Source of the DNA: an uncultured bacterium
Lineage (GTDB): Bacteria; Patescibacteriota; Saccharimonadia; UBA4664
Assembly (NCBI GenBank): GCA_963720265.1
Contig: CAVRET010000002.1
Coordinates: forward strand, 264,704-328,703
Reading direction: 5' to 3'
DNA length: 64,000 nt
The notes beneath the pieces are model-generated. The model did no database searches, was not told where the DNA came from, and saw only the letters and a list, made by a program, of their open reading frames with translations. The position numbers and the translations under genes were made by a program. Below, piece after piece: positions 11,044-52,184 of the stretch (position 1 is its first letter; the number at the start of each line of letters is the position of its first letter).

Positions 11044-11054
11044 GTGCCCACGAA

Positions 11055-12690: not shown

Positions 12691-12696
12691 TACGTT

Positions 12697-13683
12697 TTAG
12701 TGGCGCTTGCGCGTAGCCAGCCGCCGGCCGACTTTTTTCGTTACCGGCCAAGCCGTTTGCCAGACCGCATATAGCGCGCGATTCAGTGGCCGGTCCCACG
12801 TGCCGATCCAGTCCGTTTCCACTGGTCCAAATCCCTCTTTAAACCGCGCTACACCCTCGGTTACCCGACCGTTAAAATCGTAAACTCGCAGCCCAGCCGC
12901 TTTCATTTCACGTATCGCCTGCCACTTTAGCGCATAGTTCGCTTTCAATTCCTGGCCGTCTGCGCTCACACCGCCATAGAGCTCATAGGCCGTTCCGCCG
13001 GCCACCGCCAGCCACAAAAACGCCACCGGCCTACTGTCTGCTTTGGCATAGTACAAATAATTCCGCGCCCCGAGCTCCCGCAACAATTTCTCGTAGTACT
13101 CCGTCGGATGGATCCCGAATCCTGCCCGCTCCGCCGTTTCTGCATAAATCTTTGCCATTGGCCCAAGGTCACCCTTAATCTCGCGCGCAATCTCGATTCC
13201 ATCACGCTCGGCCTTACGCACATACTGGCGATGTTTGTGGCTCATGGCAGTCATAATATCGTCTTCGCTTAGTCTCAGGTCAATCGTATACGTGGCACTC
13301 ATCTGAATTTCGTCGCGGGCTTTGCTCCAGCCCTCGGGCAGTCTGGCTTCGAGCCAGGCCGGCTCAGTCCGCACATATAGCGCCTTTTGCTCGCGCGCCC
13401 AAGCCGTCACCTCGCCCAGCAATGCATTCACAGCCGCGCTCCCCGGCTCCCCCACTGGCCCGCGCGGCATATACGCAATCACTCGACCCAACTTGGGAAT
13501 CCGCCACAACAGCACCTGTGCGGCAGCCTCCCAGCTTTCACCATCAACCAAGGCCAGCCGGCGCGGTGTCCAACCCGGCCGCTTCGTCTCGCCCCAACCC
13601 CATAGCTGCAGTGGGTGTCCCCACTCGCTCGCGTCCACCCACGCGTCCCAGGCTTCACGATCCGCGATTTCCACAAGCTTCAT
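12697..13683 (-). CDS. FemAB/FemX-family protein (paralog of 9338..10432)
   Basis: Start taken at the Met of MKLVEIADREAWDAWVD, which aligns with the N-terminus of the first paralog (the track ORF extends to 13830). Shares the WGW/ETKRPGW block. Confidence 0.7.
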   Translation of the reverse strand: MKLVEIADREAWDAWVDASEWGHPLQLWGWGETKRPGWTPRRLALVDGESWEAAAQVLLWRIPKLGRVIAYMPRGPVGEPGSAAVNALLGEVTAWAREQKALYVRTEPAWLEARLPEGWSKARDEIQMSATYTIDLRLSEDDIMTAMSHKHRQYVRKAERDGIEIAREIKGDLGPMAKIYAETAERAGFGIHPTEYYEKLLRELGARNYLYYAKADSRPVAFLWLAVAGGTAYELYGGVSADGQELKANYALKWQAIREMKAAGLRVYDFNGRVTEGVARFKEGFGPVETDWIGTWDRPLNRALYAVWQTAWPVTKKVGRRLATRKRH

Positions 13684-22534: not shown

Positions 22535-22828
22535 GCGCGACTTTTTGAAAATCGAAATTTCAATCTGGAATTTCTGCAGCAAATCGAGAGATAACAAAAA
22601 ACGGCTCCAAGTCGAGCCGAAGAATCATTTGGCGGAGAGGGTGGGATTCGAACCCACGGAAGCCTTGCGACCTCACCGCATTTCGAGTGCGGCGCACTAG
22701 TCCACTATGCGACCTCTCCAAAAAAATTTTATTCCGCTTATGTTTCCACGGAGAAGTCCGCGAAACTTGTTTTAGCGATTTTTCGAAGAATCGATTATTC
22801 GATCTGGAACTTGTCTACGGTAGCGCAA
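22535..22828. repeat. imperfect ~45-nt direct repeats flanking tRNA-Ser(CGA)
   Basis: GCGCGACTTTTTGAAAATCGAAATTTCAATCTGGAATTTCTGCAGC (22535-22580) versus TAGCGATTTTTCGAAGAATCGATTATTCGATCTGGAACTTGTCTACG (22773-22820), on either side of the tRNA. Confidence 0.45.
22630..22719 (-). tRNA. tRNA-Ser (anticodon CGA)
   Basis: Minus-strand cloverleaf GGAGAGG...CTCGAAA...GGTTCGAATCC...CCTCTCCGCCA with a long variable arm and encoded CCA. Confidence 0.8.
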
Positions 22829-23020
22829 AACCGCGTTCGGCTCAAGCGCCCACCATGATACATGATTGACAAACGATCAAATAACTGGCACATCTGCACA
22901 GTCAACTGCCCCGTTAGGGTTCGAGACGGCCACAGTTAAGGCAGCTTGCGGTTCCGGGTCGGCGTCAAGCCAATAGCATAGAAAGCACCTGAGCCACGTC
23001 TGAATGCAAGCCTAGCATTT

Positions 23021-24709
23021 TTGTGTAATAGTGTATCTATGCGTAGGCGATCAAAGAAAGACCGCGCCGAAGGCGCGGTTAAAACTATCGACGATTTTGG
23101 TCTGTTCAGTCGGCGGGCACTAAATATACTTGCCGCTTTTTCGTTTCTCGCAATTTTTGCGGCCGTCGGCATCTACATGACGCACAAATCGCAGGCCGCG
23201 AGCGGCGAGGTGGTGGTATCGCCGGTCGGCAATTACGGCTACTGCATGGACGACTTCCACTCGCAGACCGGATCAGCGGGAGCACCAAACAAGGTGGATA
23301 TCTGGGGATGCAATGGCTCAACTGCCCAAGATTGGACCTATAACTCCAACCATACAATTACTGACTTTGGACAGTGTCTGGATGTCTATCAGGGAGGCAA
23401 AACCTCCGGATCAAAGGTTGACTTGTTTCCATGTAACGGCGGCACGAACCAACTGTGGACCACAACCGCCCAAAACACACTGGTCAACACCGGTAGTGGC
23501 TTATGTTTGGACGATCCCAGTGCTAGCACCACCGATGGTACGCAACTACAAATTTGGACATGTAACGGCAACGTCCAGCAAATCTGGTACTGGTCAGCCC
23601 CCGCGACTCCTGTACCCACGCCGGCACCAACACCAAAGCCCACGGTTAATCCAACTCCGGCGCCAACTCCTGTGCCCACGCCGGCGCCCACGCCCAACCC
23701 GGGTGGCGGTGGGGGAGGCACTGGGGGAGGGACTGGTGGTGGTTCCGGCGGCTCGGGTGGCACAGGCGGAGGTACGGGTAGTGGGTCGGGTGGCAGCAGC
23801 GGAGGTACCGGCGGTGGAGGCGGCAGCTCCGACACGGGCGGAGGCAGCAGTGGAAGTGGTAGCAGCTCGAGCAGCGCCTCGGTACCTTCAACACCCGGCA
23901 ACTTCACGGCCACTGCCGACAGTACCAACGCGGTTATCACGTTATCTTGGACAGCCTCAAGCGATGCGGTTGGCATCATGGGCTATCAGGTCGAACGGTC
24001 AGTCGATGACGCCACCTGGTCGGTACTGTCAACCGACGCCACCGGCGATGGGTATGATGACACTTCGGTCAACTTCGGCGTGCACTATTATTACCGGATA
24101 AAGGCGATTGACAACAGCGGCAACGAATCCGGCTACGCAACCGCCGATGCTACAACGGCATCATTTGTAGGAACGGCCTCAGCCGGCTCGGGTTCGTCGT
24201 CCTACACGAGCGAAGATGGGCTCGCTACAGTAACATTACCCAGTGGCGCTGTAGCCGGTTCAGTAGATTGCAGCGTGGCCGTTGACACGGCTACCAACTT
24301 CGCGACCAAGTCACACAAAGTAGTGGCCGGTCCATATGAGCTCGTCTGCAAAGATGCAAACGGTAATGCTGTAACGTCATTCGCGCAAGCGTTATCGTGG
24401 TCAATCAGCCTCAAAAACAAGCTCAAGGGCGTATCAGGACCAACTGCCTACACAGCGACTGCAAGCAGCACACTGAGCGTCATCACGAATGCGAAATTTA
24501 ACACTTCGTCGCAGGTCATGACGTTTACCACTACGTCTGCCAACGACGTGCTCGTGCTGGCGACTATCAGCCACGGCATCTCCTGGAGCTTCGTGGTAAT
24601 CATTCTTGTGGTGCTAGGCATCGCCGGCGGTGTTGCAACGCTGATTCTCCGGCGGCAGCAGAAGTCAAACTACGATGACTACCTACGGACCAAGTACTAC
24701 AACCTTTAA
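23021..24709 (+). CDS. cell-surface protein: N-terminal TM anchor, ricin-B (beta-trefoil) lectin repeats, Pro/Thr and Gly-rich linkers, fibronectin type III domain, C-terminal TM helix
   Basis: QxW lectin repeats (QDW, QLW, QIW; GQCLD, GLCLDD). PTPAPTPKP and G/S/T low-complexity linkers. FN3 block YQVERSVDDATWSVL...YYYRIKAIDNSGNES. C-terminal helix WSFVVIILVVLGIAGGVATLILRRQQ. Confidence 0.8.
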   Translation: MCNSVSMRRRSKKDRAEGAVKTIDDFGLFSRRALNILAAFSFLAIFAAVGIYMTHKSQAASGEVVVSPVGNYGYCMDDFHSQTGSAGAPNKVDIWGCNGSTAQDWTYNSNHTITDFGQCLDVYQGGKTSGSKVDLFPCNGGTNQLWTTTAQNTLVNTGSGLCLDDPSASTTDGTQLQIWTCNGNVQQIWYWSAPATPVPTPAPTPKPTVNPTPAPTPVPTPAPTPNPGGGGGGTGGGTGGGSGGSGGTGGGTGSGSGGSSGGTGGGGGSSDTGGGSSGSGSSSSSASVPSTPGNFTATADSTNAVITLSWTASSDAVGIMGYQVERSVDDATWSVLSTDATGDGYDDTSVNFGVHYYYRIKAIDNSGNESGYATADATTASFVGTASAGSGSSSYTSEDGLATVTLPSGAVAGSVDCSVAVDTATNFATKSHKVVAGPYELVCKDANGNAVTSFAQALSWSISLKNKLKGVSGPTAYTATASSTLSVITNAKFNTSSQVMTFTTTSANDVLVLATISHGISWSFVVIILVVLGIAGGVATLILRRQQKSNYDDYLRTKYYNL

Positions 24710-24736
24710 ATGCTAAGCCGTCGCAACTGAGCCTAA

Positions 24737-25099
24737 CTAGCCGAGTAAGCGGGTCCGCTGCAACAAGCATTCCTCCGCCAAGACGCCACCGGTAACGACA
24801 ATTGGATATTTCTTTGACCACCGTGCAATCTCCTCGGCCGGGATCGGCAATGAGGCCGTCGGCTCGGTTTTTGCACCATAGTAGACGCGCGCGACTTTTG
24901 CTTTAATAATGCAGGTTATGCACGCCGGGCAAGGCTCTGAGGTAGTATAGAATACATGATCTCTCAGCGAGAGCGTAGTCAGTTTCTGACACAAGAACCG
25001 GATCGCGTTAACTTCGCCATGAGCGGCAGGATCAGTGTACTCATGCAAACGATCATGGTCCCGATGTACAACACTGCCTAACTGATCAGCACAACACAA
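24737..25099 (-). CDS. cytidine/deoxycytidylate-type (CDA-fold) zinc deaminase, TadA-like
   Basis: H(G)E motif HGEVNAI and PCxxC motif EPCPAC. 120 aa, short N-terminus. Confidence 0.65.
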   Translation of the reverse strand: MCCADQLGSVVHRDHDRLHEYTDPAAHGEVNAIRFLCQKLTTLSLRDHVFYTTSEPCPACITCIIKAKVARVYYGAKTEPTASLPIPAEEIARWSKKYPIVVTGGVLAEECLLQRTRLLG

Positions 25100-25193
25100 G
25101 CAAACGGCTCGTTGCCGTCTCGCACCGCCTGTTCCGCCTCCGCCAGCGCCAATTCATAACCCCTTCAGGCTGCATAATAATTCTGATAATTCC

Positions 25194-25269
25194 TGGCGCG
25201 CTTGGCAGGATTCGAACCTGCGACCCCCAGCACCGCAAGCTGATGCTCTATCCACTGAGCTACAAGCGC
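25194..25269 (-). tRNA. tRNA-Arg (anticodon GCG as read here)
   Basis: GCGCTTGTAGCTCAGTGGATAGAGCATCAGCTTGCGGTGCTGGGGGTCGCAGGTTCGAATCCTGCCAAGCGCGCCA. C35/G36 and an A-containing D-loop fit Arg identity. Confidence 0.75.
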
Positions 25270-25328
25270 ATGCGCCTAAGCACCACCCGACTTTACCATA
25301 TTCGGTCGCAAAAATAAAGTCAGTTGAA

Positions 25329-25928
25329 CTAAAACCGCAGATACTGGGTGACGCGTTCAATCATGTCTGGTTGGCGGTCAACTCGTGGCAAATACTGCTC
25401 GAGATGCGCCACAATAACATCCAAATCCTGCGGATCAAATAGCACTGCCATGCGCGGACGGAAGCGCCGTGTCGGTTCAAGGTCAATGGTGTGCCACTCA
25501 GCATCAGGCAAAACCCCAAACGAACGAAACTCCTTGAACGGAAGGGCATGGCCCTCAATCACAATGCCGGCCGCGGTCAGCTCGTACGTCAAAACTCGCG
25601 GCGGTTTGTGTGCGTATACGGCTATTGCGACGCCCATTGCCACAAACGCTCCCGCCACCAGCCAGTAGTGCAGCAGCAGCGCCGCACCTACCAAAATCGC
25701 TACTCCACCGACTAAGCCCGCATACCATCCTGTACCCTTATGGTTGTGGACATATTCAGAGGCTTGCCATTTAAATCCCGGCTCTTCAGGGAGTTCGTCG
25801 CCTTCACCCGCGTCGAATTGCCCGGCGTCTGCATTAGGGTCGGCGTCAGCCAACAACCCACCGGTCTGATCATCCGGCGTCGGTGCTTCGGGCAGCTGCG
25901 TATTCGGCTGTTGGTCGTCGTCTTGCAT
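25329..25928 (-). CDS. bPH_2/YdbS-like membrane protein (acidic N-terminal tail, 2 TM helices, PH-like domain)
   Basis: TM hairpin WYAGLVGGVAILVGAALLL...AGAFVAMGVAIAVYA followed by a ~90-aa soluble domain. Start at the Met of MQDDDQQ. Confidence 0.45.
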   Translation of the reverse strand: MQDDDQQPNTQLPEAPTPDDQTGGLLADADPNADAGQFDAGEGDELPEEPGFKWQASEYVHNHKGTGWYAGLVGGVAILVGAALLLHYWLVAGAFVAMGVAIAVYAHKPPRVLTYELTAAGIVIEGHALPFKEFRSFGVLPDAEWHTIDLEPTRRFRPRMAVLFDPQDLDVIVAHLEQYLPRVDRQPDMIERVTQYLRF

Positions 25929-25999
25929 CACACCTGCTTCACTGGCATTATGACGCAACCGCAGGCAAAACCACAAGCATGATCAATAATTCCAATACC

Positions 26000-26085
26000 T
26001 GGCGGAGGGGGTGGGATTCGAACCCACGAGGCGCTAGCCTGCCGGTTTTCAAGACCGGTGCCTTCAACCACTCGGCCACCCCTCC
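26000..26085 (-). tRNA. tRNA-Ser (anticodon TGA)
   Basis: GGAGGGGTGGCCGAGTGGTTGAAGGC...CTTGAAA...GGTTCGAATCCCACCCCCTCCGCCA with a long variable arm and CCA. Confidence 0.8.
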
Positions 26086-26113
26086 AGAAAAATATAAAGA
26101 ATCTAATAATACC

Positions 26114-26206
26114 TGGCGGAGAGGGAGAGATTCGAACTCTCGCGAGGGATTACTCCCCCCTACAGGTTTAGCAAACCCGCCCCTTCAGCCTCTTGGGTAC
26201 CTCTCC
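26114..26206 (-). tRNA. tRNA-Ser (anticodon GCT)
   Basis: GGAGAGGTACCCAAGAGGCTGAAGGG...TTGCTAA...GAGTTCGAATCTCTCCCTCTCCGCCA with a long variable arm and CCA. Confidence 0.75.
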
Positions 26207-27224: not shown

Positions 27225-27665
27225 TTACGTTGATTTACTCAAGGTGGTGATCACAAACGACACCACCGCGAACGACACAATCGCGACCACAATACCTATG
27301 ATAGCGTACAAGATCGTGTCCTTGGCCGCTGACACGTTCTTCGGGTCGCCATTCGACACCACATACCGCAGACCACCGATAATCAGGAAGATCACGGCCA
27401 CGGCGCCGATGATAAACACTAAGGTGTCGGCAATGGTCTGAAACGCACCCCCCGGGGCAAACAGGTCGTTACTCGTCCCCGCCGCCTGACCGCAGCCGGC
27501 GCCATTTGCAAGCGGTGTAGTGGTAACGTCACTGCTGCAAGTGCCGGCCAAGGCCACCGGTGCCACCACTGTACTCACTGCCAAGCTCGCAATACCAAAA
27601 CCGGACGCTAAAATAAGTGCCTGTAACATAGGGAAGATCTTTTTGCCCAATTTCGCGATACGCAT
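27225..27665 (-). CDS. small secreted two-TM pilin-like protein (T4SS pilin / TrbC-VirB2-like), paralog 1
   Basis: Signal peptide MRIAKLGKKIFPMLQALILASGFGIASLA. Two Cys in the mature N-terminal segment. TM1-loop-TM2 with IIGGLRYVVSNGDPKNVSAAKDTILYAIIG. The track ORF extends to 27746. Confidence 0.6.
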   Translation of the reverse strand: MRIAKLGKKIFPMLQALILASGFGIASLAVSTVVAPVALAGTCSSDVTTTPLANGAGCGQAAGTSNDLFAPGGAFQTIADTLVFIIGAVAVIFLIIGGLRYVVSNGDPKNVSAAKDTILYAIIGIVVAIVSFAVVSFVITTLSKST

Positions 27666-27770
27666 CTGAAGTGAGTACTCCTTCATGTTCAATCTATTAT
27701 AACGCAACCTTACGTCGACCCTACCATAAGCACTTTCACTTGGCAAACAACAGGGCCGCCATTCCGGCTA

Positions 27771-28085
27771 CTATGTGATGCTGTTGATGACGAAGTTCAC
27801 AATCGCCCAGGATACAATCGCCACCACCACGCCGATCGCCGCATACAAGATCGTGTCCTTGGCCGAGCCGGTCGCCTTTGGATCACCGTTCGAGAGCACG
27901 TAACGCAACCCGCCGACGATAATCATAATGACCGAAATCGACCCAACCAGATACACCAATACATCAGCGATCAGTCCAAAGGTGTGCGGCAAATCCGTTT
28001 TGGTGTTGCAAACACTCCCGCAAGCCTGCGTGAGCCCGCTGGAGATGGCACTGGTGGCGTCTGCCATGAGATGGAAAGCTATCAT
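27771..28085 (-). CDS. pilin-like two-TM protein, paralog 2
   Basis: ACGSVC Cys pair, IVGGLRYVLSNGDPKATGSAKDTILYAAIG. Confidence 0.6.
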   Translation of the reverse strand: MIAFHLMADATSAISSGLTQACGSVCNTKTDLPHTFGLIADVLVYLVGSISVIMIIVGGLRYVLSNGDPKATGSAKDTILYAAIGVVVAIVSWAIVNFVINSIT

Positions 28086-28101
28086 TTTTGCCTCTCTTCC
28101 A

Positions 28102-28434
28102 TTAAATATTTCCGCTTGTGGCCCCCGCGATAAACGTCACAATCGCGTACCCGGCGATTGCAACGCCCAGACCCACACAGGCGTACAGGATCGTTTCTCT
28201 GGCCGTACTGGTCTTCTTGGGATCGCCACCCGATAGCACATATTGCAGTCCACCCACAATAATAAAGATGAGCGCCAGCCCGCCCATGAGCTCCATCATG
28301 AGTGCCACGCCGTTTGCCACTGCCTGGCCGAGGTTTGCCGTACTGCACGGTACCCCGATGTCGCTGGCCGTAATGTTATACGGATTGCTGCTTTGCGAGC
28401 CGCAGGCCGCAGCTGCCGCCAGTAACCAATGCAT
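28102..28434 (-). CDS. pilin-like two-TM protein, paralog 3
   Basis: Cys pair (ACGS...PCST), IVGGLQYVLSGGDPKKTSTARETILYACVG. Confidence 0.6.
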   Translation of the reverse strand: MHWLLAAAAACGSQSSNPYNITASDIGVPCSTANLGQAVANGVALMMELMGGLALIFIIVGGLQYVLSGGDPKKTSTARETILYACVGLGVAIAGYAIVTFIAGATSGNI

Positions 28435-28437
28435 GCT

Positions 28438-28791
28438 CTAAAACCCCTGCGCTATAAACGTTATGATCGCATATGCCAGGGTAATGAGCACCAGTCCGGT
28501 GGCCGTATACTGAATAATCTCCCGAGCGCGCTTGATTCGGTCCGGCGCTCCCATCGACGTAATGTAAAAAATTGCCGCCAACAAGATAGTAATAATCGCA
28601 ATCGACCCGGAAACCACAATCAAAATCCGGACCGCGTTGCCAATTATTACCAGCACGCCACTGACGGCGGTTAAGGTAATCTGGCCGTTCGTACAGGTCA
28701 GCCCCGGCCCGGGCTGGTATAGGCTCGGCGGAAACGCACTCGTTGGAGCGCAGGCGTCCGCCAACTTAAACAATCCCAGCATCGGCCCCAT
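28438..28791 (-). CDS. pilin-like two-TM protein, paralog 4 (divergent)
   Basis: Cys pair (ACAPT...TCTNG). Degenerate loop IFYITSMGAPDRIKRAREIIQYTATG between two TM helices. Confidence 0.5.
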   Translation of the reverse strand: MGPMLGLFKLADACAPTSAFPPSLYQPGPGLTCTNGQITLTAVSGVLVIIGNAVRILIVVSGSIAIITILLAAIFYITSMGAPDRIKRAREIIQYTATGLVLITLAYAIITFIAQGF

Positions 28792-29244
28792 CTATAGAAC
28801 CCCTCCCGGCACCAAATAGTTCAGAATCGCAAACATGCACAGGAACAACACCAGTGCGATCAGTGCGTTAGTTAGACGGTCTTTGGCTGCCTTAACCTGG
28901 CTCGGATTCGCACCCGAGGTAATATACTGCACGCCGGCAATAATAATCATGAGCAACACCACCGCCGCCACCGCGCTGCTAAGCAGCTGTAAGACGTACC
29001 TTAGATAGACAATTATTGCTCCGCCGGTCGCTGCATCATTAGGAACGCCGATCCCTCCGTCGTCCGCCTTGCAGGTTTGCATACCCGGCACTATCGGCAG
29101 CGAAATCTCCACACAATCCGGAGCCGTAATGCCGGTCTGCTGACTTAGCGCCGATGCTAGGCTAGTGCCCGGCAGCGCTACCGAACCCAAGAGCGCCAGA
29201 TATCCCGCAACCAGCGCGTAACGTAACCGCTTCATGATCTGCAT
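28792..29244 (-). CDS. pilin-like two-TM protein, paralog 5, first gene of the minus-strand operon
   Basis: Signal peptide MQIMKRLRYALVAGYLALLGSVALPGTSLASA. Cys pair (DCVE...TCKA). IAGVQYITSGANPSQVKAAKDRLTNALIA. Confidence 0.55.
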   Translation of the reverse strand: MQIMKRLRYALVAGYLALLGSVALPGTSLASALSQQTGITAPDCVEISLPIVPGMQTCKADDGGIGVPNDAATGGAIIVYLRYVLQLLSSAVAAVVLLMIIIAGVQYITSGANPSQVKAAKDRLTNALIALVLFLCMFAILNYLVPGGVL

Positions 29245-35998: not shown

Positions 35999-36775
35999 AT
36001 GAGCCAATACAAAGTACCCCAAAACGTCGAGGCCGAAGACCACATCCTCGGGCCGCTCACCTTCAAGCAGTTTATCTACGGCTGCATCGGGTTTGGTTGG
36101 GCCATCGTTTGCTTTGGGCTCTTTAAGGACATTCCCGCGCTCATGTTTGTGGTCGGGTTTCCGCCCACACTGCTGTTTCTGCTGCTCGCATTCTATACCC
36201 GCGACGGGCAAAACTTCGAGCAAATATTGCTGGCAATGGTTGGTTTCTTTGCCTCCGAGCGGCGTAGACTATGGGTTAAGGAAGCCGTGGCAGTCACATT
36301 TGAGGTCGAGCCGGCCAAAATTATCAGTGAAACTACCCAACGCAACCCCGCCGAAGTTCGCAGCCAGCTTGAGCGGCTCTCTAATCTCATAGACTCGCGC
36401 GGCTGGAACCTCGACCCACGATCCGACCATTCGGAAATGCAGCAGTTTCTGCCCACCACGAGCCACAGCGACCGTCTCGTTGCTCCACCACCGGCAGTAC
36501 CCCAGCCCGACGAACCCCGTGCCGACATGCTCGACCTAACAAATAGCCCGCTCGCGCAAAATCTTGCCCAACTCCTAGCCGATGCCGCCGGTGAAGCCAA
36601 ATCTCAAGCAATCGACAGCATCGGCGCCAACCCGCGCCGAGCTCGCGAGTTAAGCACAAGCGGCGTGACACCTGGAGCCCAGGCCGATATACTAAGACTA
36701 GCCACAGAAGGCGGCGACCTGACGGTCGCTAGACTCGCCGCCCAAGCTAATCGAGTGAACCGAGATGCCAGCTAA
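35999..36775 (+). CDS. PrgI-family / VirB3-like small T4SS membrane protein
   Basis: N-terminus MSQYKVPQNVEAEDHILGPLTFKQFIYGCIGFGWAIV matches the PrgI pattern (Y-V-P...G-L-T-x-x-Q-F) with a 2-TM hairpin. Sits directly upstream of VirB4, as in Gram-positive T4SS. Confidence 0.55.
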   Translation: MSQYKVPQNVEAEDHILGPLTFKQFIYGCIGFGWAIVCFGLFKDIPALMFVVGFPPTLLFLLLAFYTRDGQNFEQILLAMVGFFASERRRLWVKEAVAVTFEVEPAKIISETTQRNPAEVRSQLERLSNLIDSRGWNLDPRSDHSEMQQFLPTTSHSDRLVAPPPAVPQPDEPRADMLDLTNSPLAQNLAQLLADAAGEAKSQAIDSIGANPRRARELSTSGVTPGAQADILRLATEGGDLTVARLAAQANRVNRDAS

Positions 36776-37499
36776 TACCGAAGCCAAGGAAGGCAAAAGC
36801 ACCCAAAATACCCTCCTTATCTCCGAGGTCAAGGACGGGGTAGTTGTTATGCGCGACGGCAGTTTGCGCGGTGTGATTTTGGGCTCAGCCATTAATTTCG
36901 ACCTCATGAGCACAGAGGAGCAGGAAGCGACCGAATACGCCTACCAAGGCTTCATCAACTCGCTCCATTTCCCAGTCCAAATTTCCATCAAGAGCAAAAA
37001 AATCGACATCGCACCCTATGTCGAGAAGCTACAGGCACAGCGCTCCGAACTCTCTAATGAACTACTCGGCTCGCTCATGGACGACTACATCTTAAACATC
37101 AAGGCCTTAGTCGAGCAGGTTAACATCATGGACAAGCAGTTTTATATCACGGTGCCGTTCTTCCCTCCCATGGCCGTAAAGAAAAACACCAACCTGTTTG
37201 CCGAGCTCAAAGCCGCCTTTGAGCCAACACCGATCATCATCGTCTCAGAAGAAGACTTCCGCAATTACAAGCAAGAATTAACTGAGCGCATGCAGTTGGT
37301 CGAATCCGGCCTTACCCAAATGGGCATCCGCGCCTTGGCCCTCGGCACCCAGGAGCTGGTTGACCTGTATTATTCCTGGTACAACCCCGACGTCGCAGCC
37401 AACGAGAAACTCATTGAAGTCGGTCAAATCACCACGCCGGTTGTCACCAAAGGCGAAGGTTCCGCCCCGCGCGGCCCACTGCCAGGGGCTCCAATCTAA
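36765..37499 (+). CDS. VirB4/TraC-family N-terminal domain encoded as a separate ORF
   Basis: LISEVKDGVVVMRDGSLRGVILGSAINFDLMSTEEQEATEYAYQGFINSLHFPVQI resembles the conserved N-terminus of Gram-positive VirB4 homologs (PrgJ/TcpF/TrsE). The stop TAA overlaps the next ATG (TAATG at 37497-37501). Confidence 0.5.
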   Translation: MPANTEAKEGKSTQNTLLISEVKDGVVVMRDGSLRGVILGSAINFDLMSTEEQEATEYAYQGFINSLHFPVQISIKSKKIDIAPYVEKLQAQRSELSNELLGSLMDDYILNIKALVEQVNIMDKQFYITVPFFPPMAVKKNTNLFAELKAAFEPTPIIIVSEEDFRNYKQELTERMQLVESGLTQMGIRALALGTQELVDLYYSWYNPDVAANEKLIEVGQITTPVVTKGEGSAPRGPLPGAPI

Positions 37500-39397
37500 T
37501 GGCCTTTGGACGCAAACACGACGCCGGCTTCCAGGCCAACCAGCTCGAGGAAATGGCACGTCTCCAGGATCAGCACGAGGCCGAGCTCATCTATCGCCAG
37601 GGTATTGTTACCATGCGCGACCTCATCGCACCCCCTAGCCTTGAGATCGAGTCCGGCTACCTCAAACTCGGCAAGCGCTATTGCAAAACCGTCTACGTCT
37701 ACGGCTACCCACGTCAGGTCTTTACCGGCTGGCTGTCGCCGATCATTAACCTCGACGAAATTATCGATATATCACTCTTCATTTATCCGGTTGAAAGCCA
37801 GGTTGTTTTAAGCAACCTGAAGAAAAAAGTCGGCCAGATGGAAGCCAGCTACCAGATCAACGAAGAAAAGGGGAGGGTGCGTGACCCCGGTCTCGAAGCC
37901 GCAATCCAAGACGCTGAAGAACTCCGCGACAAACTGCAAGTGGGGGAGGAGCGCTTTTTCCGTTTCGGCCTCTATCTCACCATGTATGCCGACAACCTTG
38001 AAGACCTTACCCAAGTTTCGCGAAAAATCGAGGGCATTTTCGGCCAATCACTTGTCTATACCAAGCCTGCCACCATGCAAATGGAGCAAGGTTTCAACTC
38101 CTCAATTCCGCAGGCAACCGACCAGCTTCAGATTTATCGCAACATGAATACCGGCTCGCTCTCCACCAGTTTCCCGTTTACCTCAGCCGAGTTGTCTCGC
38201 AACGAAGGCATTCTCTACGGCCTCAACCGCCACAACAACGGCCTCGTGCTGTTTGACCGCTTCTCGCTCGAAAACGCCAACATGGTCGTATTTGCCAAGT
38301 CCGGCGCCGGTAAATCCTTTGCCATCAAACTTGAAGCCCTGCGCAGTCTCATGATGGGCGTTGAAATCATCGTTATCGACCCCGAAAACGAATATGAGCG
38401 ACTGTGTGAGGCCGTTGGCGGCACCTACTTGCGCCTCAGCCTGGCATCTGCCACCCGCATCAACCCATTTGATCTGCCCCGCGTGTTTGACCAGGACGAG
38501 GCTGATAACGCACTCCAAGCCAATATCATTTCGCTCCACGGTCTGCTCCGACTTATGATGGGCGGTGCCACCGTCAACAACACCACCGGCGCCACTACCT
38601 CAACCCCGCTGACGCCGGCTGAGGACGCCGATCTCGATCTCGCCATTATCAATACCTATGCTAGAGCCGGCATCACCAAAGACCCACTCACGCATGGCGC
38701 CACGCCGCCCACAATGAACGACCTCTATAACACTTTGGCCTCGATGTCGGGCAACGGTCCATCCCTCGCTGCCCGCTTGCGCCAATACACCACCGGCACC
38801 TTTTCCGGCATTTTCTCAGAACAGTCCAATGTTGAGATCAACAATCCGTTTTTGGTCTTCAACATCCGCGACCTCGAAGATGAACTCCGCCCAGTCGGCA
38901 TGTACATCGTCCTCAACTATATCTGGAACAAGGTCAAATCTGACCGCCGCCGCCGCCTTCTCATCGTGGACGAGGCCTGGCAGCTCATGAAGTACGACGA
39001 TTCCGCTAACTTCATGTTCTCACTCGCCAAACGCGCTCGCAAATACGCCCTCGGCCTTACGACGATCTCGCAGGACGTTGAAGACTTCTTGGCCAGCAAA
39101 ATGGGCCGCGCCGTGGTTGCCAACTCGTCACTACAGCTCCTGCTCAAGCAAGCACCGTCCGCCGTTGACATCGTCGCCGATACCTTCAAGCTCACCGATG
39201 AAGAGAAAAAACGCTTAAGCCAATTCCCGGTCGGGGAGGGCCTATTCTTCGCCGGCCTTAACCACGTCATCATGCGTGTTCTCGCTTCAGACAACGAGGC
39301 GCAGCTCATTTCCACCACCCCGGCAACTCCGCAGAACGCGTCCGCCGACTATCAATCCGAACCATCGCAAACAGACCAAGAACAGCCCGCATCATAA
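37499..39397 (+). CDS. virB4: VirB4-family T4SS ATPase, C-terminal (middle plus ATPase) portion
   Basis: Walker A VVFAKSGAGKSF, Walker B RLLIVDEAWQLM, and the TTISQDVEDF motif. 632 aa, 876 aa combined with the upstream ORF. Confidence 0.85.
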   Translation: MAFGRKHDAGFQANQLEEMARLQDQHEAELIYRQGIVTMRDLIAPPSLEIESGYLKLGKRYCKTVYVYGYPRQVFTGWLSPIINLDEIIDISLFIYPVESQVVLSNLKKKVGQMEASYQINEEKGRVRDPGLEAAIQDAEELRDKLQVGEERFFRFGLYLTMYADNLEDLTQVSRKIEGIFGQSLVYTKPATMQMEQGFNSSIPQATDQLQIYRNMNTGSLSTSFPFTSAELSRNEGILYGLNRHNNGLVLFDRFSLENANMVVFAKSGAGKSFAIKLEALRSLMMGVEIIVIDPENEYERLCEAVGGTYLRLSLASATRINPFDLPRVFDQDEADNALQANIISLHGLLRLMMGGATVNNTTGATTSTPLTPAEDADLDLAIINTYARAGITKDPLTHGATPPTMNDLYNTLASMSGNGPSLAARLRQYTTGTFSGIFSEQSNVEINNPFLVFNIRDLEDELRPVGMYIVLNYIWNKVKSDRRRRLLIVDEAWQLMKYDDSANFMFSLAKRARKYALGLTTISQDVEDFLASKMGRAVVANSSLQLLLKQAPSAVDIVADTFKLTDEEKKRLSQFPVGEGLFFAGLNHVIMRVLASDNEAQLISTTPATPQNASADYQSEPSQTDQEQPAS

Positions 39398-39487: not shown

Positions 39488-42382
39488 ATGGCTGACACGA
39501 GGGATTCCGAACGACTCCGCCGCAGTTCCAGCCGTGGCGCCGGCTTCAATGGTCCGGGCGGTTCAACTCGCCCCGGCACCAGCGGGCCAGGTGATACCAC
39601 ACGTCCGGCCAACCGCAGTGGATTCTCCAGTTCAACTTCTTCCCGGCCCGTCGGTGGCGTAAAGGGTGGATTTGCGCGCCCGTCGGGCACCGGCGGAAGT
39701 CCGCTCGCGAGCACAAACGCCGGCAGTGGCACCAACCTTTCTGACCGCCAGGAAGAACGGTTCAAGCAACTCGACGCCGAAGCTAAGGCCAAACAAGCTA
39801 CTGAGGATGCCGCCCGTGTCGGCCGTAACGAGGAAAAAGACGCAGCTGAATCGGCCAGAAAAATGGCCGGCTCCAATTATGAAAACGCCAGCAATGGCAA
39901 TGCCAAGGCCGGCGAAGAAGCCCGCGACGCCGAAAAAGACGCCGCCTCCGCCCTCAAATCCGGCAGCAAAGCCACCGGAATCAACATGGGCCGCCCCTTA
40001 AGCGACCAGGACTGGGCGCGCCACAGCTCAAATGCTGAGCGCGCCGCCGCCGGCACGACCGGCCAGAATGGTCTCGCCATGAGAACCAACACCGGAGCCG
40101 GTGGTGGCTTCGACCGTGTGCGGGGATTTTTCCGAAGGCACCGTACCGGCACCGTAGTCGGCACCAGCGCCGGAGGCCTATTCCTAGCCGGAATCATGGC
40201 ATTCGCGCTCCTCATTCCGCTCCAGCTCCTCGACATGGCCAATATGATGCTCCACGCCGCCCAGCAAGACGTTGAGCATGAAGTTGATAAGGCCGGCCTC
40301 AAAATTCTCCAAAAAATGATCCAGTCACGGGAAAAAGATCCCGGCGGCACGTTGCAGCACACCGGCCATCCCATTGCCGATGCCATTCACAACGTCACGA
40401 TTAAAAAATTTAACGATGACCTGTACAAAGACGGCATCAAGATAACCTTCGATAAAAGTGGCCGCCTCACCGGCATCGAGTACCTCGACGACTCAAAAAA
40501 CATCGACCTCTCCGACGCCTCATTCACAGCCCGCCGCAGCGCCATCAAAGATTTGGTCTTTGAACGCATCTCGCCGTGGCGGCCGCTGGCTCGCATTCTC
40601 TATACTCGGCGCCTCCAAGCCTGGGCCAACGTATCTTGGCGATTTTGGCCCAAGGAGAAAGTTGCCAACATTGCAAAGCTGATGTGGGAAAAAGTCCGTC
40701 AGGGCGCAACCGTTAATGAAATACAGCAAGAAACCGGTGAATCCGAGCAACAGGCCGCTCAGGAGCAAGCTGCCGCTCAATCCAGTGGCGAAACCGACGC
40801 CACCGGCGATATTGGCGAACTGGAGCAAAAAGTAGATGGCGGTGAACCAAAAACACAGGCCATTAGAGACGTTGTCGCCTCAATTAAGAGTCATCCCGCC
40901 TTTGGGATTACGGGTATGGTTGCGCTCATCTGTATCGTTGAGCAAATCGCCAACAGAGCCGCCACCCATGGTTACGTCCAGCGCGCCGACCTCCTCATGC
41001 GGATGGGCAACTTGATACCAACCATGGCCTCTCAGCTCGTTACCGGCGACGGCATCCTGCAAACCTCTGCGGGTGGCTTCAACATCGACGAGCTCAACCA
41101 GGCCATGCAAGCGTTCCAGGGTGACCCCAAAGCCCCATCAGATTCTCTCGACCGCCTCAGCTGGGCCCAGTCCGCCTCAGCCAGACGCGACATGGGCCTG
41201 CCGGTCAACAGCAACCCCAAGAGCCCCAACTTCAATCCCGACTTTAATGAAGCCGCCAATCCCGACGGCAACGCGCTCGTCAACGTCATTGGCGAGTTCA
41301 CATCCGTATTTAATTCCATTCCAGGCGCCAGCTTCACCTGTAGTATTCTCACCGGCGTATTTGGCACCATTGTCCAGATTGGCCTGCAGATTGTTGAGTT
41401 TGCCGTCAACATTGTCGACGGCGAAACTGAGGAAATCCTTTCCAGCGCTGCCGACGTTGGCATTCAAACCGCGCTCTTTGGCTGGGTCTTACCCAAAGTA
41501 CTGGAGGCCGGCGCCGGTCTTGCGGTTACCGGCAATGAGAATCCCGTTGATATGTTCAACAACGGCCAAGCGGGCTTAAGCCTAGCTTCCGAGCAATTTA
41601 TGCGCTCCATGGGCGGCCGCGAGCTTACCAACACCGAAGAAGCCGATATCAACAATTCAGCCCAAGGCGACCAGTTTAACTACGCCGAATCTCAAGGCTG
41701 GCGCTACAATCTGTTTGCCATCTCCAACCCCAATTCCTTGCTCGCACGCACGGTCATCAATATTCCGGACACGCCCGGTCAGGCCCTAGCCGACATGATG
41801 AACGTCCCGAGTAGCGTCACGCACGGCATGGCCACCGTCTTTCTCGGTATCAGGCCGGCCAGTGCCGATGCCAACAATATAAACCCCTACGGTTGGCAAA
41901 TGTATGGCTTCACCGACGCCGAAATCGACAAATATGACCCCATTGCCAACGAGGATTTCCTGACCCAACCAGTCAAAAAACCGGACGGCACCTACACCAC
42001 CCGTCTCGCCATGCTGGGCGACCCATCGCACTATGTGCCAACCCAAACCGACGATCCCGACCAACAGGATCTCCTCCATTGTTTCGTTGATAAATACTCT
42101 GAGCAGCACAACGGCGACGGCTTTGCCAACCCGAATCCCGGAGATGTCTGCGACGGCCTCGGCCTTGCCACTACCCGCGACGGCAATGAGGTGTTCAATC
42201 CAACCGACCAGCAAATTGTTAACACCATCTACTGCCAGAACAACAATGTCTGCAATCTCCAGCCCAACGACGACTTCCTGCGCTACCGTCTCGAATTGCT
42301 CTACACCGACGTTGTGAGCTCAATGGACTGCGAAACCACAACCGTTGATTGTTTTACCGGAAACGACCCCTATGATGATTAA
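39488..42382 (+). CDS. large polytopic membrane protein of the T4SS-like locus (disordered G/S/R-rich N-terminus, ~4-5 TM helices, large soluble domains)
   Basis: 964 aa. N-terminal ~210 aa are low-complexity (RGAGFNGPGGSTRPGTSGPG...). TM helices at VVGTSAGGLFLAGIMAFALLIPLQLL, ITGMVALICIV, FGTIVQIGLQIVEFAVNIV, ALFGWVLPKVLEAGAGLAV. Confidence 0.5.
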   Translation: MADTRDSERLRRSSSRGAGFNGPGGSTRPGTSGPGDTTRPANRSGFSSSTSSRPVGGVKGGFARPSGTGGSPLASTNAGSGTNLSDRQEERFKQLDAEAKAKQATEDAARVGRNEEKDAAESARKMAGSNYENASNGNAKAGEEARDAEKDAASALKSGSKATGINMGRPLSDQDWARHSSNAERAAAGTTGQNGLAMRTNTGAGGGFDRVRGFFRRHRTGTVVGTSAGGLFLAGIMAFALLIPLQLLDMANMMLHAAQQDVEHEVDKAGLKILQKMIQSREKDPGGTLQHTGHPIADAIHNVTIKKFNDDLYKDGIKITFDKSGRLTGIEYLDDSKNIDLSDASFTARRSAIKDLVFERISPWRPLARILYTRRLQAWANVSWRFWPKEKVANIAKLMWEKVRQGATVNEIQQETGESEQQAAQEQAAAQSSGETDATGDIGELEQKVDGGEPKTQAIRDVVASIKSHPAFGITGMVALICIVEQIANRAATHGYVQRADLLMRMGNLIPTMASQLVTGDGILQTSAGGFNIDELNQAMQAFQGDPKAPSDSLDRLSWAQSASARRDMGLPVNSNPKSPNFNPDFNEAANPDGNALVNVIGEFTSVFNSIPGASFTCSILTGVFGTIVQIGLQIVEFAVNIVDGETEEILSSAADVGIQTALFGWVLPKVLEAGAGLAVTGNENPVDMFNNGQAGLSLASEQFMRSMGGRELTNTEEADINNSAQGDQFNYAESQGWRYNLFAISNPNSLLARTVINIPDTPGQALADMMNVPSSVTHGMATVFLGIRPASADANNINPYGWQMYGFTDAEIDKYDPIANEDFLTQPVKKPDGTYTTRLAMLGDPSHYVPTQTDDPDQQDLLHCFVDKYSEQHNGDGFANPNPGDVCDGLGLATTRDGNEVFNPTDQQIVNTIYCQNNNVCNLQPNDDFLRYRLELLYTDVVSSMDCETTTVDCFTGNDPYDD

Positions 42383-45222: not shown

Positions 45223-45514
45223 GGCTCCCAATCCTGACCGCAAGTCGCGTGCCGTCCAACTGAGTAGCGGCCAGCAGTTCAAGTTGGCGCAATCTCAGCT
45301 CACTTGCCACGCTCGCATTCGGTGTCACCAGCTTGAGCACGCCCTGGTGCAAACTGCGCGCCCGCACCTGGCCTGGATACCGTGCCTCCAGCCACGCCTG
45401 CACGGTTGAGAGCACATCAGCCCGGTCGAACCCCAATTCACGGCGTTTGCGCTCAAAATAGTCGGCCTCAAGCATGTGACACCTCACTTGGCGGCATCGT
45501 ATGTCCAGTCTCAA
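45212..45514 (-). CDS. DUF721 domain protein (DciA-like helicase-loader family), in the recF-downstream position
   Basis: ~90-100 aa basic protein (LEADYFERKRRELGF...VLKLVTPNASVASELRL) in the conserved dnaA-dnaN-recF-DUF721 synteny. The true start is probably the internal Met at 45475. Confidence 0.5.
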   Translation of the reverse strand: MRLDIRCRQVRCHMLEADYFERKRRELGFDRADVLSTVQAWLEARYPGQVRARSLHQGVLKLVTPNASVASELRLRQLELLAATQLDGTRLAVRIGSLTD

Positions 45515-46559
45515 TCACACTATGCGGCCGCGGCCACGCCCGTGTTACGCTATCCGCATTAGTCGTGGTAATAAGCGTTTGGTGGTCATTGAGCCGCTCC
45601 AGCAAATACCCGCGCCGTCTGCCGTCGAGCTCGCTAAACACATCATCAAGCAACAGCACCGGCCGTACCCCGGTTTGCAGTTCGGCATACGCCAGTTCCG
45701 CCAATTTCATTGCCAGCACCACTGTCCGCACTTCACCGCGCGATGCTACGGCCATAATGTCGTTATTCTTGAACGCGACCTTAAAGTCCTCGCGATGCGG
45801 CCCAATGGTTGTAAATCCAGCCGCGAGGTCACGCGGCAAGTTGCGCGTGAGCGTCTCAGCAAACCCTTCAGCATAATCACCGCTCACGCTTGGCATATAG
45901 CTAAATACGACCGGCTCATGACCACCCGCCACATCGGCGTACAAATCCGGCACCATACGGTTTAGCGCCATAATCAGTTCCTGTCGCCGCCGGTAAATTT
46001 CGGTCGCAAGTTCCGCCAAACGCAAATCCCAAGTAAAAATCTGTTCCCGGATTTGCCCAACCTCAAAATTGCTAAGAAGTGCGTTCCGCTGCTTCAGCAC
46101 CCGCCGGTATTGCTGCAACGTAGTAAGGTATGTCCGGTCGGTCTGGCTCAGCAAAAAATCTAGGTACCGCCGCCGCCCCTCCGGCGGACCGGCCACCAGC
46201 TCCAGCTCGGTCGGCTCAAACAGCGTAATTTGCAACGTTCCGACATGCCCGGACAGCGGCCGAGTCACGCCGTCGTGTGTTACTTTCTTGGTCACCGCCC
46301 CGCCAGCCGTACTCATGCCCAATGCATATTCTACGTCGCCCACTCGCGCCACCAACCGAAAGTAGTCCTGCTCGTGCCGCACCAGGTCGCGGTCATGTGC
46401 CCGAAAGCTCTTGGTTACCGCGAGCACATACAGGCTCTCAAGCAAATTGGTTTTACCACTGGCATTTGGCCCGGCCACGATGGTCACATCGGGGTGCAAC
46501 GCAAACTCTGCCTGCTCGTACGAGCGGAAATTCGTTAATGCCAGACCCTCAACCCTCAT
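45468..46559 (-). CDS. recF: DNA replication and repair protein RecF
   Basis: MRVEGLALTNFRSY start, Walker A GPNASGKTN, C-terminal signature LLLDDVFSELD. Start trimmed to MRVEG; the track ORF extends to 46619. Confidence 0.92.
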   Translation of the reverse strand: MRVEGLALTNFRSYEQAEFALHPDVTIVAGPNASGKTNLLESLYVLAVTKSFRAHDRDLVRHEQDYFRLVARVGDVEYALGMSTAGGAVTKKVTHDGVTRPLSGHVGTLQITLFEPTELELVAGPPEGRRRYLDFLLSQTDRTYLTTLQQYRRVLKQRNALLSNFEVGQIREQIFTWDLRLAELATEIYRRRQELIMALNRMVPDLYADVAGGHEPVVFSYMPSVSGDYAEGFAETLTRNLPRDLAAGFTTIGPHREDFKVAFKNNDIMAVASRGEVRTVVLAMKLAELAYAELQTGVRPVLLLDDVFSELDGRRRGYLLERLNDHQTLITTTNADSVTRAWPRPHSVIETGHTMPPSEVSHA

Positions 46560-46842
46560 TGTTCTATTGTATCTGATTACAGGGCACAAAAAATTCCAGC
46601 CCGAGTAGCTGAAACGCACCTAAACAGCAGCGAGGCCCGGACGCGTGGATCACATGGATCGCACGCGCCGGGCACAACGTACAAGTGTATGCATCACGTG
46701 CTCCTTCCAGGAGCCTAGACATCCCTATATATAACCTTAAGCTTCGAGCGTTTGGGATTAAAAAACTCCCTCAACTCGCCATACATAATAGAACATTAAG
46801 ATAAAAAAGTCAATAAAGCTTAGCCTTACTTGAGCAAAAAAA

Positions 46843-47952
46843 TTAAGTCCGCAACGGCATCACAATGTGTAGGTAATCATCTTTCACATCGTCGCCGGTA
46901 GGGGAGAGTACACACGCGCTCAGCTTGCCACTAATTGCAAACCGCACCTCGGGCGACTTCATTACCGCCAGCGCATCAGTCAGGTAGCGCGCATTCAGCG
47001 AAATCTCACCATCATCACCACTCACGTCGCATTCTGCCGAGCTCGTATTGCCGCCCACCTCGGAATCACTCGTTACGATCTTAACCTCACCCTCAGCCCT
47101 AATCTCAAGCTTTATGCTTCCAGCGCTTTCCCGCGCAAACAAGCTAGCTACCTTGGTGATGCGCGCAAATTCCGCGGTATCAATATCAAATGAGCTCGTC
47201 ATCTTATTCGGAATAATCTGCCGGTAATTAGGAAAGCTGCCGTCAATCAGCCGGCTTACCAGCTCAACGTCACCGACCTTAAACATCACCTGGCCTTCAT
47301 CCAGATACACCTCAACCTCACCCTCGGCCTCGCCCAGCAGCCGCACCAGTTCCATCATGGTCTTTGCCGGGACAATCGCCGAAAGTGGGGCAGACGGCTC
47401 ATCCGTAAGCGTCAACTTCTTTTCCGCCAAGCGGTACGAATCCGTCGCTACAATGTAGAGCGTCTTATCCTCGGTGTACAAATACACGCCGGCCAGCACC
47501 GGCCGTGCCTCATCGGCCGACGCTGCCACAACCACTTGCGTCAGAGCCTCCTTGAGCGTCTCAGCATTCAAGGTCAGAACCGCATCGCTCGTAAGTGTTG
47601 GAATAAGGGGAAATTCGTCGGCTACAATACCGTTAATCTTCGACTCATAATGCGGACTCTTCACGGTTAGTACCGCCTCAGTAGCCGAAAGCTCAATGGT
47701 ACCCTTCGGCAGGCTCGACACAAACTCAGCAAACAGCCGCGCCGGTACCGTCAGTGAGCCCTGCTGCTCAACTTTTGAGCCAATCCAATAATTAATTCCG
47801 ATCTCTAGGTTGGTTGCCGACAGCCTCAGCCGGTTCCCATCGGTCACCAAGAGTACATTCGATAGCACCGGCAAACTAGTCCGGGTCGACACCACTCGGC
47901 CCACACTACTGAGCGCCCGTGCCAGATTTTCCTGGGTCAGACTTAAGCGCAC
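46843..47952 (-). CDS. dnaN: DNA polymerase III beta sliding clamp
   Basis: MRLSLTQENLARAL start, 369 aa, three-domain clamp. Confidence 0.93.
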   Translation of the reverse strand: MRLSLTQENLARALSSVGRVVSTRTSLPVLSNVLLVTDGNRLRLSATNLEIGINYWIGSKVEQQGSLTVPARLFAEFVSSLPKGTIELSATEAVLTVKSPHYESKINGIVADEFPLIPTLTSDAVLTLNAETLKEALTQVVVAASADEARPVLAGVYLYTEDKTLYIVATDSYRLAEKKLTLTDEPSAPLSAIVPAKTMMELVRLLGEAEGEVEVYLDEGQVMFKVGDVELVSRLIDGSFPNYRQIIPNKMTSSFDIDTAEFARITKVASLFARESAGSIKLEIRAEGEVKIVTSDSEVGGNTSSAECDVSGDDGEISLNARYLTDALAVMKSPEVRFAISGKLSACVLSPTGDDVKDDYLHIVMPLRT

Positions 47953-51368: not shown

Positions 51369-52184
51369 ATGTGGTTTACCGTCATCTTAATTCAGCCCAT
51401 TTTTAATCTGCTGGCGCTCATCTACGCGGTGGTACACGATTTTGGCCTGGCCATCATTATCCTCACCATTCTGATCCGCGGGCTGCTCTGGCCGCTTGTT
51501 AGCCGCCAACTCCATTCCCAGCGCGCACTCCAAGACCTCCAACCTGAACTCAAGAAAATTAAAGACCAGGCCAAAGGCGACCGTCAGCTCGAAGGCAAGC
51601 TCACTATGGAGCTCTACAAAGAGCGCGAGATCAACCCGTTTGCGTCATTTTTGCCCCTGCTCATCCAGTTACCCATCTTCTTCGCTCTGTTTGTCGTCCT
51701 GAAGGATGTTACCCATGTCCAGGACATTGAAAAGCTAGCCTACCCATTTGTGAAGCATCTGCCCGCCATCGCCGAGATTATTGATAAGAAGATCGCCTTC
51801 CATCCCACGTTTCTTGGGTTTATTAATCTGACCAAACCGTCGTGGGTGTTAGCCCTGCTGGCCGGTCTAGCGCAGTTTGTGCAAACCAAGCAAATTACAC
51901 CCAAGGCGCAGCCGGACGATCAACAGGCCCAAATGATGGCCGGCATGGTGTATATCTTTCCTGTGCTAACATTCTTCATTGGTCTGTCGCTGCCGTCCGC
52001 GCTGTCGTTGTATTGGACCACCGCGAGCCTCATGGCCATTTTGCAGCAATACCTCGTGCTGGGACGAGACGTCCAAGAGATGGAAGAGGCCATCGACGCT
52101 CTGCCCGCAGGGGCAGCTTCGAAGTCGGGGTCTGGGCGTTCCAAAGCGAAGAGTCAGGGTAAAAAGAAGGAGGCAAAAGCATGA
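51369..52184 (+). CDS. yidC: membrane protein insertase YidC/Oxa1 (short Gram-positive/CPR-type form)
   Basis: 271 aa, 5 TM helices, conserved LTILIRGLLWPL in the first helix, Lys-rich C-terminal tail. Confidence 0.85.
   Translation: MWFTVILIQPIFNLLALIYAVVHDFGLAIIILTILIRGLLWPLVSRQLHSQRALQDLQPELKKIKDQAKGDRQLEGKLTMELYKEREINPFASFLPLLIQLPIFFALFVVLKDVTHVQDIEKLAYPFVKHLPAIAEIIDKKIAFHPTFLGFINLTKPSWVLALLAGLAQFVQTKQITPKAQPDDQQAQMMAGMVYIFPVLTFFIGLSLPSALSLYWTTASLMAILQQYLVLGRDVQEMEEAIDALPAGAASKSGSGRSKAKSQGKKKEAKA

Follow-up and report, generated by a model that had tools for sequence, protein, structure and literature searches.

A VirB4 encoded by two genes

The VirB4 ATPase of a type IV secretion system (T4SS) in an uncultured Saccharimonadia bacterium is encoded by two genes that overlap by one base, and this division is real and old. 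The genes were found in a stretch of 64,000 nucleotides (nt), here called the window, of contig CAVRET010000002.1 (1,108,292 bp), directly after a gene for a PrgI/VirB3-like protein. The first open reading frame (ORF), ORF-A, encodes a TrsD-like protein of 244 amino acids (aa) and the second, ORF-B, a short VirB4 ATPase of 632 aa, which makes 876 aa together. The stop codon of ORF-A (TAA, 37497-37499) and the start codon of ORF-B (ATG, 37499-37501) have one base in common, in agreement with the preliminary description of the locus, and the public gene calls of the contig are exactly these two proteins (Table 1). Our comparisons support that ORF-A corresponds to the first ~200 residues of VirB4, a detached N-terminal subdomain, and that the two halves are complementary. 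The arrangement is ordinary for the lineage and has already been published, as the conserved and functional TrsD and short VirB4 of Saccharibacteria and related bacteria. What we add is small, namely explicit complementarity and fusion evidence for TrsD as the detached N-terminal part of VirB4, and a conserved, presumably coupled junction.

Conservation of the split and of the junction

Two adjacent ORFs in different frames, with the summed size of an intact VirB4, are also what would be left if one 876-aa virB4 gene had been interrupted, be it by a recent frameshift, as in an incipient pseudogene, or by an indel from assembly or sequencing. Both had been considered in the preliminary description next to a genuinely split VirB4 with its N-terminal part as a separate subunit, and one natural fused relative (P0243, treated below) does exist. 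A scan of one genome per species gave 18 loci with a relative of ORF-A, 17 from Saccharimonadia/Saccharibacteria and one from Gracilibacteria. ORF-A and ORF-B are separate genes in every one of the 17 Saccharimonadia loci, which come from independent assemblies and where ORF-A is 45-76% identical to that of the window. The same split is present in Southlakia epibionticum ML1, in plasmids of Firmicutes and Actinomycetota, and in the best 120 homologue clusters of each protein (227-259 aa for ORF-A and 611-686 aa for ORF-B, none of them fused); among the best 150 representatives of ORF-A at 50% identity, 149 are 122-478 aa long and one, P0243, has 898 aa. Two loci, L001 and L015, have spacers between the genes (136 and 139 nt), and the one in L001 holds a stop in the frame of ORF-B, which does not fit a single gene recently broken. 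Both genes are under purifying selection; in comparison with four closer relatives the ratio of nonsynonymous to synonymous substitution rates (dN/dS) is 0.10-0.17 for ORF-A and 0.08-0.11 for ORF-B, that is ~0.1 in both. The GC-rich tract before the junction, which had been suspected of a sequencing error, is coding sequence for APRGPLPGAP, a conserved motif at the C-terminus of ORF-A that relatives have too.

The junction is TAATG in 13 of the 17 loci and TAGTG in another one (L013), L016 has TAGatATG with a gap of 2 nt, and the last two are those with long spacers. Synonymous sites are saturated between the window and the four closer relatives (dS > 1.2), yet the junction pentamer is kept, and the overlap is thus conserved beyond what synonymous drift would leave. 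Relative to ORF-A, ORF-B is read in the -1 frame, and this and the strongly conserved junction could point to programmed -1 ribosomal frameshifting, by which a fused 876-aa VirB4 would be produced besides or instead of the two proteins. However, the last 100 nt of ORF-A contain no slippery heptamer of the type X_XXY_YYZ, ORF-B has an ATG of its own at the junction in almost every locus, the genes of L016, L001 and L015 cannot be fused by one shift, and the gaps in the corresponding modules of pSK41, Clostridioides and Miltoncostaea are 14, 17 and 66 nt. We regard programmed frameshifting as very improbable and a broken gene as even less credible; the conserved split, the selection on both genes and the lack of a slippery heptamer lead us to reject sequencing error, recent frameshift and programmed frameshifting alike.

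Upstream of ORF-B, a scan for Shine-Dalgarno motifs was suggestive, with AGGAG or GGAGG in most loci at a distance of 8-10 nt. Close relatives have an almost invariant tail of ORF-A, VTKGEGSAPRGPLPGAPI (window 37440-37496, residues ~226-244), in spite of its predicted disorder. A Shine-Dalgarno-like block for ORF-B (AGGAG/AGGGG) lies in the codons of this tail, and the constraint may be on a peptide motif or on a ribosome-binding site.

The two proteins as complementary parts of VirB4

ORF-B has the hallmarks of a VirB4. It scores 360.6 bits (E 1.6e-107) against the equivalog model NCBIfam NF045971 (VirB4-like, CD1110 family), which has a curated cutoff of 325, and covers positions 182-730 of its 752. 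Residues 232-604 match the C-terminal domain (CTD) of VirB4 in PDB 4AG5 (E 3e-47), a RecA-like ATPase domain, and the Walker motifs named in the preliminary description were located as AKSGAGKS (Walker A, residues 266-273, window 38294-38317) and LLIVDEAW (Walker B, residues 487-494, window 38957-38980). There are also Pfam matches to P-loop_TraG, AAA_10 and DUF87, and the gene has a PrgI neighbour inside a T4SS cluster. Ahead of the ATPase domain, residues 1 to ~230 make up the second half of the VirB4 N-terminal domain (NTD) and include a weak match to CagE_TrbE_VirB. The models enter ORF-B at 182/752 (CD1110), 280/894 (VirB4_plasma) and 236/792 (TIGR00929), so the complete NTD is not found on ORF-B alone but only on ORF-A and ORF-B jointly. 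In BLASTP alignments, residue 37 of ORF-B corresponds to residue 222 of the 796-aa PrgJ of pCF10 (E 3e-39) and residue 41 to residue 36 of TrsE of pSK41 (E 1e-43, 24% identity). Since ORF-B and TrsE align from the same N-terminal position, the split point is shared with TrsD/TrsE. The split thus falls inside the NTD, which in TrwK of R388 comprises residues 15-400 (PMC9259494), and not at the boundary between NTD and CTD. The first suggestion that the 244-aa protein is the VirB4 NTD therefore holds for the first ~200 residues, but not for the whole domain, as ORF-B keeps ~230 residues of it.

The part that precedes ORF-B in the VirB4 models is covered by ORF-A. In the VirB4_plasma model ORF-A occupies positions 99-282 and ORF-B positions 280-893, and in PRK13853 (Agrobacterium-type VirB4) ORF-A occupies positions 17-205 and ORF-B those from 232. 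When the two proteins are concatenated, the 876 aa align as one unbroken stretch with VirB4_plasma (residues 8-848 to model 99-893; 275.9 bits vs 255.4 for ORF-B alone) and with TIGR00929 (residues 22-822 to model 18-729; 128.6 vs 118.2 bits), and no model positions are missing at the junction. The best named match of ORF-A is NCBIfam NF041427 (TrsD/TraD), where its score of 28.2 bits (E 1.5e-6) falls well short of the cutoff of 200, and ORF-A is hence a distant relative of TrsD/TraD and not a member under the NCBI subfamily definition. A profile of 54 ORF-A sequences was aligned by hhalign with TrsD of pSK41 (E 3.6e-5, probability 71%) over 177 columns, residues 9-206 of ORF-A to 30-217 of TrsD, at ~20% identity. 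By this remote similarity and by gene order, ORF-A is probably a homologue of TrsD of the staphylococcal plasmids pSK41/pGO1. Pfam PF26593 ("TraC-like") is given in precomputed annotation for ORF-A itself (P0001) and for all its listed homologues; hmmscan gave no such match for ORF-A with our local copy of Pfam-A, which presumably lacks the model.

The structure predicted for ORF-A with AlphaFold2 (AF2) from the same diverse alignment of 54 sequences has a mean local confidence (pLDDT) of 85.7 and a pTM of 0.74, with residues 13-213 folded and the tail 214-244 disordered. In a Foldseek search of the PDB with this model, the top 14 matches are all chains of R388 TrwK/VirB4 (E 5e-4 to 1.8e-2, probability 0.99-1.0, ~195 columns), and those that follow are unrelated, with E >= 0.07. 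An earlier model from a shallow alignment (67-83% identity) had a pLDDT of 57.8 and likewise gave only TrwK as top matches. By its match to a solved full-length VirB4, the modelled protein appears to have the fold of the VirB4 NTD, and the coordinates in the hidden Markov models (HMMs) suggest that the match lies at the N-terminal part of TrwK.

The natural fusion P0243 joins the two proteins in the same order. It can be aligned with ORF-A plus ORF-B over its full 898 aa, with 43% of the residues identical, its N-terminus has the PF26593 domain that is precomputed for ORF-A as well, and the gene (L023 5001-7697; also L024 and L025) stands directly after a gene for a PrgI of 139 aa. Five contigs, from no fewer than three independent sequencing runs, contain it. 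A low-complexity, Pro/Ala-rich linker of ~60 residues at the junction suggests a secondary re-fusion.

A number of results weigh against ORF-A as the N-terminal part of a VirB4 in two pieces. NCBIfam gives it no more than weak matches to VirB4 N-termini, with E between 1e-4 and 8e-3, far under the curated cutoffs, and in the concatenated protein the CD1110 model stops short of ORF-A. Foldseek gave a modest TM-score, up to 0.48 when normalised to the query, in an output without the matched TrwK residues. Neither ORF-A alone nor a profile of 42 ORF-A sequences found TrwK, or anything else of relevance, among the PDB sequences, and the ORF-A profile against PrgJ of pCF10 was not significant by hhalign (E 0.13). 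A profile of six concatenated ORF-A plus ORF-B sequences matched TrwK in the ATPase domain only (TrwK 446-734), so the N-terminal relationship is not demonstrable by sequence against TrwK. Because the Shine-Dalgarno-like motif ahead of ORF-B is a weak AGGGG in the window and falls within conserved codons, it is not independent evidence. Finally, the ORF-A homologue of 38% identity in the Gracilibacteria locus (L018 6001-6714) is flanked on both sides by 6 kb in which there is no homologue of VirB4. This fits the published exception of the Gracilibacteria to the association of TrsD with virB4 (PMC12102498), and means that proteins of the ORF-A type can be genetically uncoupled from VirB4.

Such uncoupling would fit a reading in which ORF-A stems from the N-terminus of VirB4 but has become an independent accessory factor, for instance an assembly chaperone, a regulator or an adaptor, and no longer a structural half of the ATPase in fixed stoichiometry, while ORF-B works alone as a shortened VirB4. 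This is the main surviving rival to a two-piece VirB4. TrsD has been left without an assigned function (PMC12102498), ORF-A evolves faster than ORF-B (67-83% vs 79-89% identity among the best matches), and many ORF-A homologues, in the size range of 122-478 aa, have variable low-complexity extensions at the N- or C-terminus. But the junction is tightly kept as a 1-nt overlap, the join in the full-length models is seamless, the fusion has the same order, and the split point is identical in TrsD/TrsE of pSK41. Moreover, in R388 the VirB4 NTD, whose first half corresponds to ORF-A, is an integral part of the protein: VirB3 wraps around it and the dimer interface of VirB4 is formed by it (PMC9259494). 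All in all we find an accessory role for ORF-A unlikely, although it deserves more belief than the frameshift explanations.

Proposed mechanism and significance

The motor is probably a VirB4 made of two polypeptides, with the first ~200 residues of the NTD from ORF-A and the rest of it and the ATPase domain from ORF-B, which would be coupled in translation at TAATG and would reassemble together with PrgI. A ribosome that terminates on ORF-A would restart on ORF-B at the TAATG, which should give roughly equal amounts of the halves, and the overlap between prgI and ORF-A may extend this termination and reinitiation to three genes. ORF-A would fold as the first subdomain of the NTD and dock onto ORF-B, and the halves presumably assemble non-covalently, with the VirB3-like PrgI, into a hexameric motor of the VirB4 type at the membrane. 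By analogy with VirB3 and the VirB4 NTD in R388, ORF-A could be the piece that touches PrgI and the neighbouring VirB4 subunits. The wider statement, that TrsD-type proteins in general are a physically detached first half of the VirB4 NTD that reassembles with a short VirB4 and PrgI/VirB3, we consider somewhat better than an even guess.

If this is right, the split and its TAATG junction could be an ancient shared derived character that links the T4SS of Patescibacteria to the pGO1-type systems of monoderms. It would also be a natural two-piece VirB4 whose module for VirB3 docking and dimerisation is open to separate manipulation, and this in a system that epibiotic growth requires. The suspicion of an assembly error or a pseudogene is in any case cleared, and the locus is an intact and conserved T4SS motor module. 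For annotation this means that the 244-aa "hypothetical protein" beside virB4 in Patescibacteria, and in some elements of Firmicutes and Actinomycetota, should be read as a TrsD-like N-terminal piece of VirB4, and that the VirB4 of ~630 aa in such loci is not truncated by error. The biological weight is modest: a concrete and testable role for TrsD, which is essential in the one genetically tractable Patescibacterium.

Genomic context

The T4SS locus lies on the chromosome of a member of the Saccharimonadia (Patescibacteria), and its layout fits the one published for Patescibacteria (Table 1).

Table 1. Secretion genes and their neighbours in the window
Feature	Position	Strand	Basis or remark
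Five tandem VirB2-like pilin genes (173, 104, 110, 117, 150 aa)	27225..29244	-	Pfam PF18895 T4SS_pilin
Polytopic membrane protein, 2221 aa	29314..35979	+	ORF and translation; directly upstream of prgI
prgI, PrgI/VirB3-like membrane protein, 258 aa	35999..36775	+	Pfam PF12666, E 3.3e-12, 47.2 bits vs cutoff 27
ORF-A, TrsD-like protein, 244 aa	36765..37499	+	ATG start (ORF list and sequence); NCBIfam TrsD match, hhalign to pSK41 TrsD, AF2/Foldseek
TAATG stop/start junction of ORF-A and ORF-B	37497..37501	+	Read from sequence
ORF-B, short VirB4 ATPase, 632 aa	37499..39397	+	ATG start (ORF list and sequence); NCBIfam CD1110-family VirB4, PDB 4AG5
964-aa protein, without assigned family	39488-42382		Downstream of ORF-B
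VirB1-like lytic transglycosylase, 472 aa	42345..43763	+	Pfam SLT_2 E 6.3e-7, SLT E 3.4e-4
recF	45468-46619	-	
dnaN	46843-47952	-	
dnaA	48805-50217	-	~9.4 kb from the end of ORF-B
yidC	51369-52184	+	

The genes follow in the order prgI, ORF-A, ORF-B, and prgI overlaps ORF-A by 11 nt. In 15 related loci, too, prgI precedes ORF-A, and the two genes overlap in most of them. The PrgI domain comprises residues 5-90 of 258 and is followed by a C-terminal extension of ~165 aa, which is kept across the Saccharimonadia loci (50-59% identity, full length) and is missing from the PrgI proteins of 117-139 aa in pCF10 and in the locus with the fused VirB4 (L023).

All five pilin ORFs match PF18895 (E 5.5e-11 to 2.5e-4), four of them above its gathering score of 26.6 bits, while the fourth in the row (28438-28791) reaches 21.5 bits. 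The pilin cluster is oriented divergently from the T4SS operon, as in Southlakia. The 2221-aa protein upstream of prgI gave no Pfam family in a Pfam scan. In its sequence an N-terminal region rich in Thr, Asn and Gly comes first, then a polytopic membrane block, and after that a stretch of ~1500 residues with a high content of Ala, Glu, Arg and Gln. The position of the protein would suit a VirB6-like role. It takes the place of the 998-aa SEML1_0011 of S. epibionticum but is twice as long; for SEML1_0011, Table S2 in PMC10633639 gives as closest structural match a UniProt entry with the name "Type IV secretion system protein".

Just downstream of the T4SS are recF, dnaN, dnaA and yidC, and the GC skew is negative over the whole window, with no change of sign at dnaA. 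Upstream, at 22630-26206, there are four tRNA genes, all on the minus strand (Ser-CGA, Arg-GCG, Ser-TGA and Ser-GCT), and between those for tRNA-Ser(CGA) and tRNA-Arg lies the gene (23021-24709) of a protein of 562 aa that has Ricin-B lectin and fn3 domains.

Comparison with known systems

Full-length VirB4 proteins, such as TrwK of R388 (PDB 7O41/8RTB), PrgJ of pCF10 and VirB4 of Agrobacterium, have a length and a domain order that are covered by ORF-A plus ORF-B. They differ in being single polypeptides, whereas in the window a gene of its own encodes the first ~200 residues. As in the window, the PrgI gene of pCF10 stands directly before that of its VirB4, PrgJ.

Closer in gene order are the staphylococcal plasmids pSK41/pGO1, which form the pGO1 subclass of the MPF-FATA type IV secretion systems. 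Like the window they have a VirB3-like gene (trsC), trsD (227 aa) and then a short VirB4, trsE (672 aa, DUF87), but trsD and trsE are separated by a gap instead of sharing a base, and the identity to the window proteins is very low (ORF-A/TrsD ~20%, ORF-B/TrsE 24%). Furthermore, pSK41 is conjugative and encodes a relaxase and a coupling protein, while the locus in the window is chromosomal, close to dnaA, dnaN and recF, and has five VirB2-like pilin genes. The same module of PrgI, an ORF-A-like protein and a short VirB4, with the gaps given above, occurs on the Clostridioides megaplasmid pESW1602 and on a Miltoncostaea plasmid. A comparable split in archaeal elements is hinted at by plasmid pCBA1112-02 of Haloplanus (L021 3998-7899), where a weak ORF-A-like match (25% identity, E 2e-3) lies at the start of a 526-aa protein that is followed, with an overlap of 4 nt, by one of 774 aa. 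The TraD of a paper on pELF plasmids (2026) proved to be unrelated, and Guglielmini et al. 2014, which is cited for the homology of TrsD and VirB4, does not have TrsD in its main text.

The nearest comparison is with other Patescibacteria. Quinonero-Coronel et al. 2025 found TrsD to be the most abundant T4SS component in this group, with 2,272 homologues of which 1,664 are associated with virB4, and proteins of this kind are counted as TrsD homologues by their own HMM (PMC12102498). They describe TrsD as a remote homologue of the N-terminal portion of VirB4, and its homologue in strain ML1 as essential (PMC12102498). In S. epibionticum ML1 (Wang et al. 2023, Table S1), SEML1_0010 is PrgI, SEML1_0009 (12272-13153) a hypothetical protein of 293 aa and SEML1_0008 (10434-12272) an ATPase of 612 aa; the last two genes share one base, and all three are classed as essential by transposon sequencing (Tn-seq) (PMC10633639). 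The published association of TrsD with virB4 and the one-base overlap in Southlakia mean that the arrangement in the window has already been described. The separate N-terminal piece proposed in the preliminary description is supported; it already carries the name TrsD/TraD (Pfam PF26593, "TraC-like"), and its association with virB4 is in print (PMC12102498). Neither paper (PMC12102498, PMC10633639) states that the adjacent VirB4 lacks exactly the TrsD portion, or describes the overlap as conserved. The T4SS in these papers has, like the window, VirB2-like pilins, PrgI, a TrsD homologue, VirB4, a VirB1-like protein with an SLT domain, and dnaA nearby. We see no material difference between the published systems of Patescibacteria and Southlakia and that of the window, which is probably another member of the same group.

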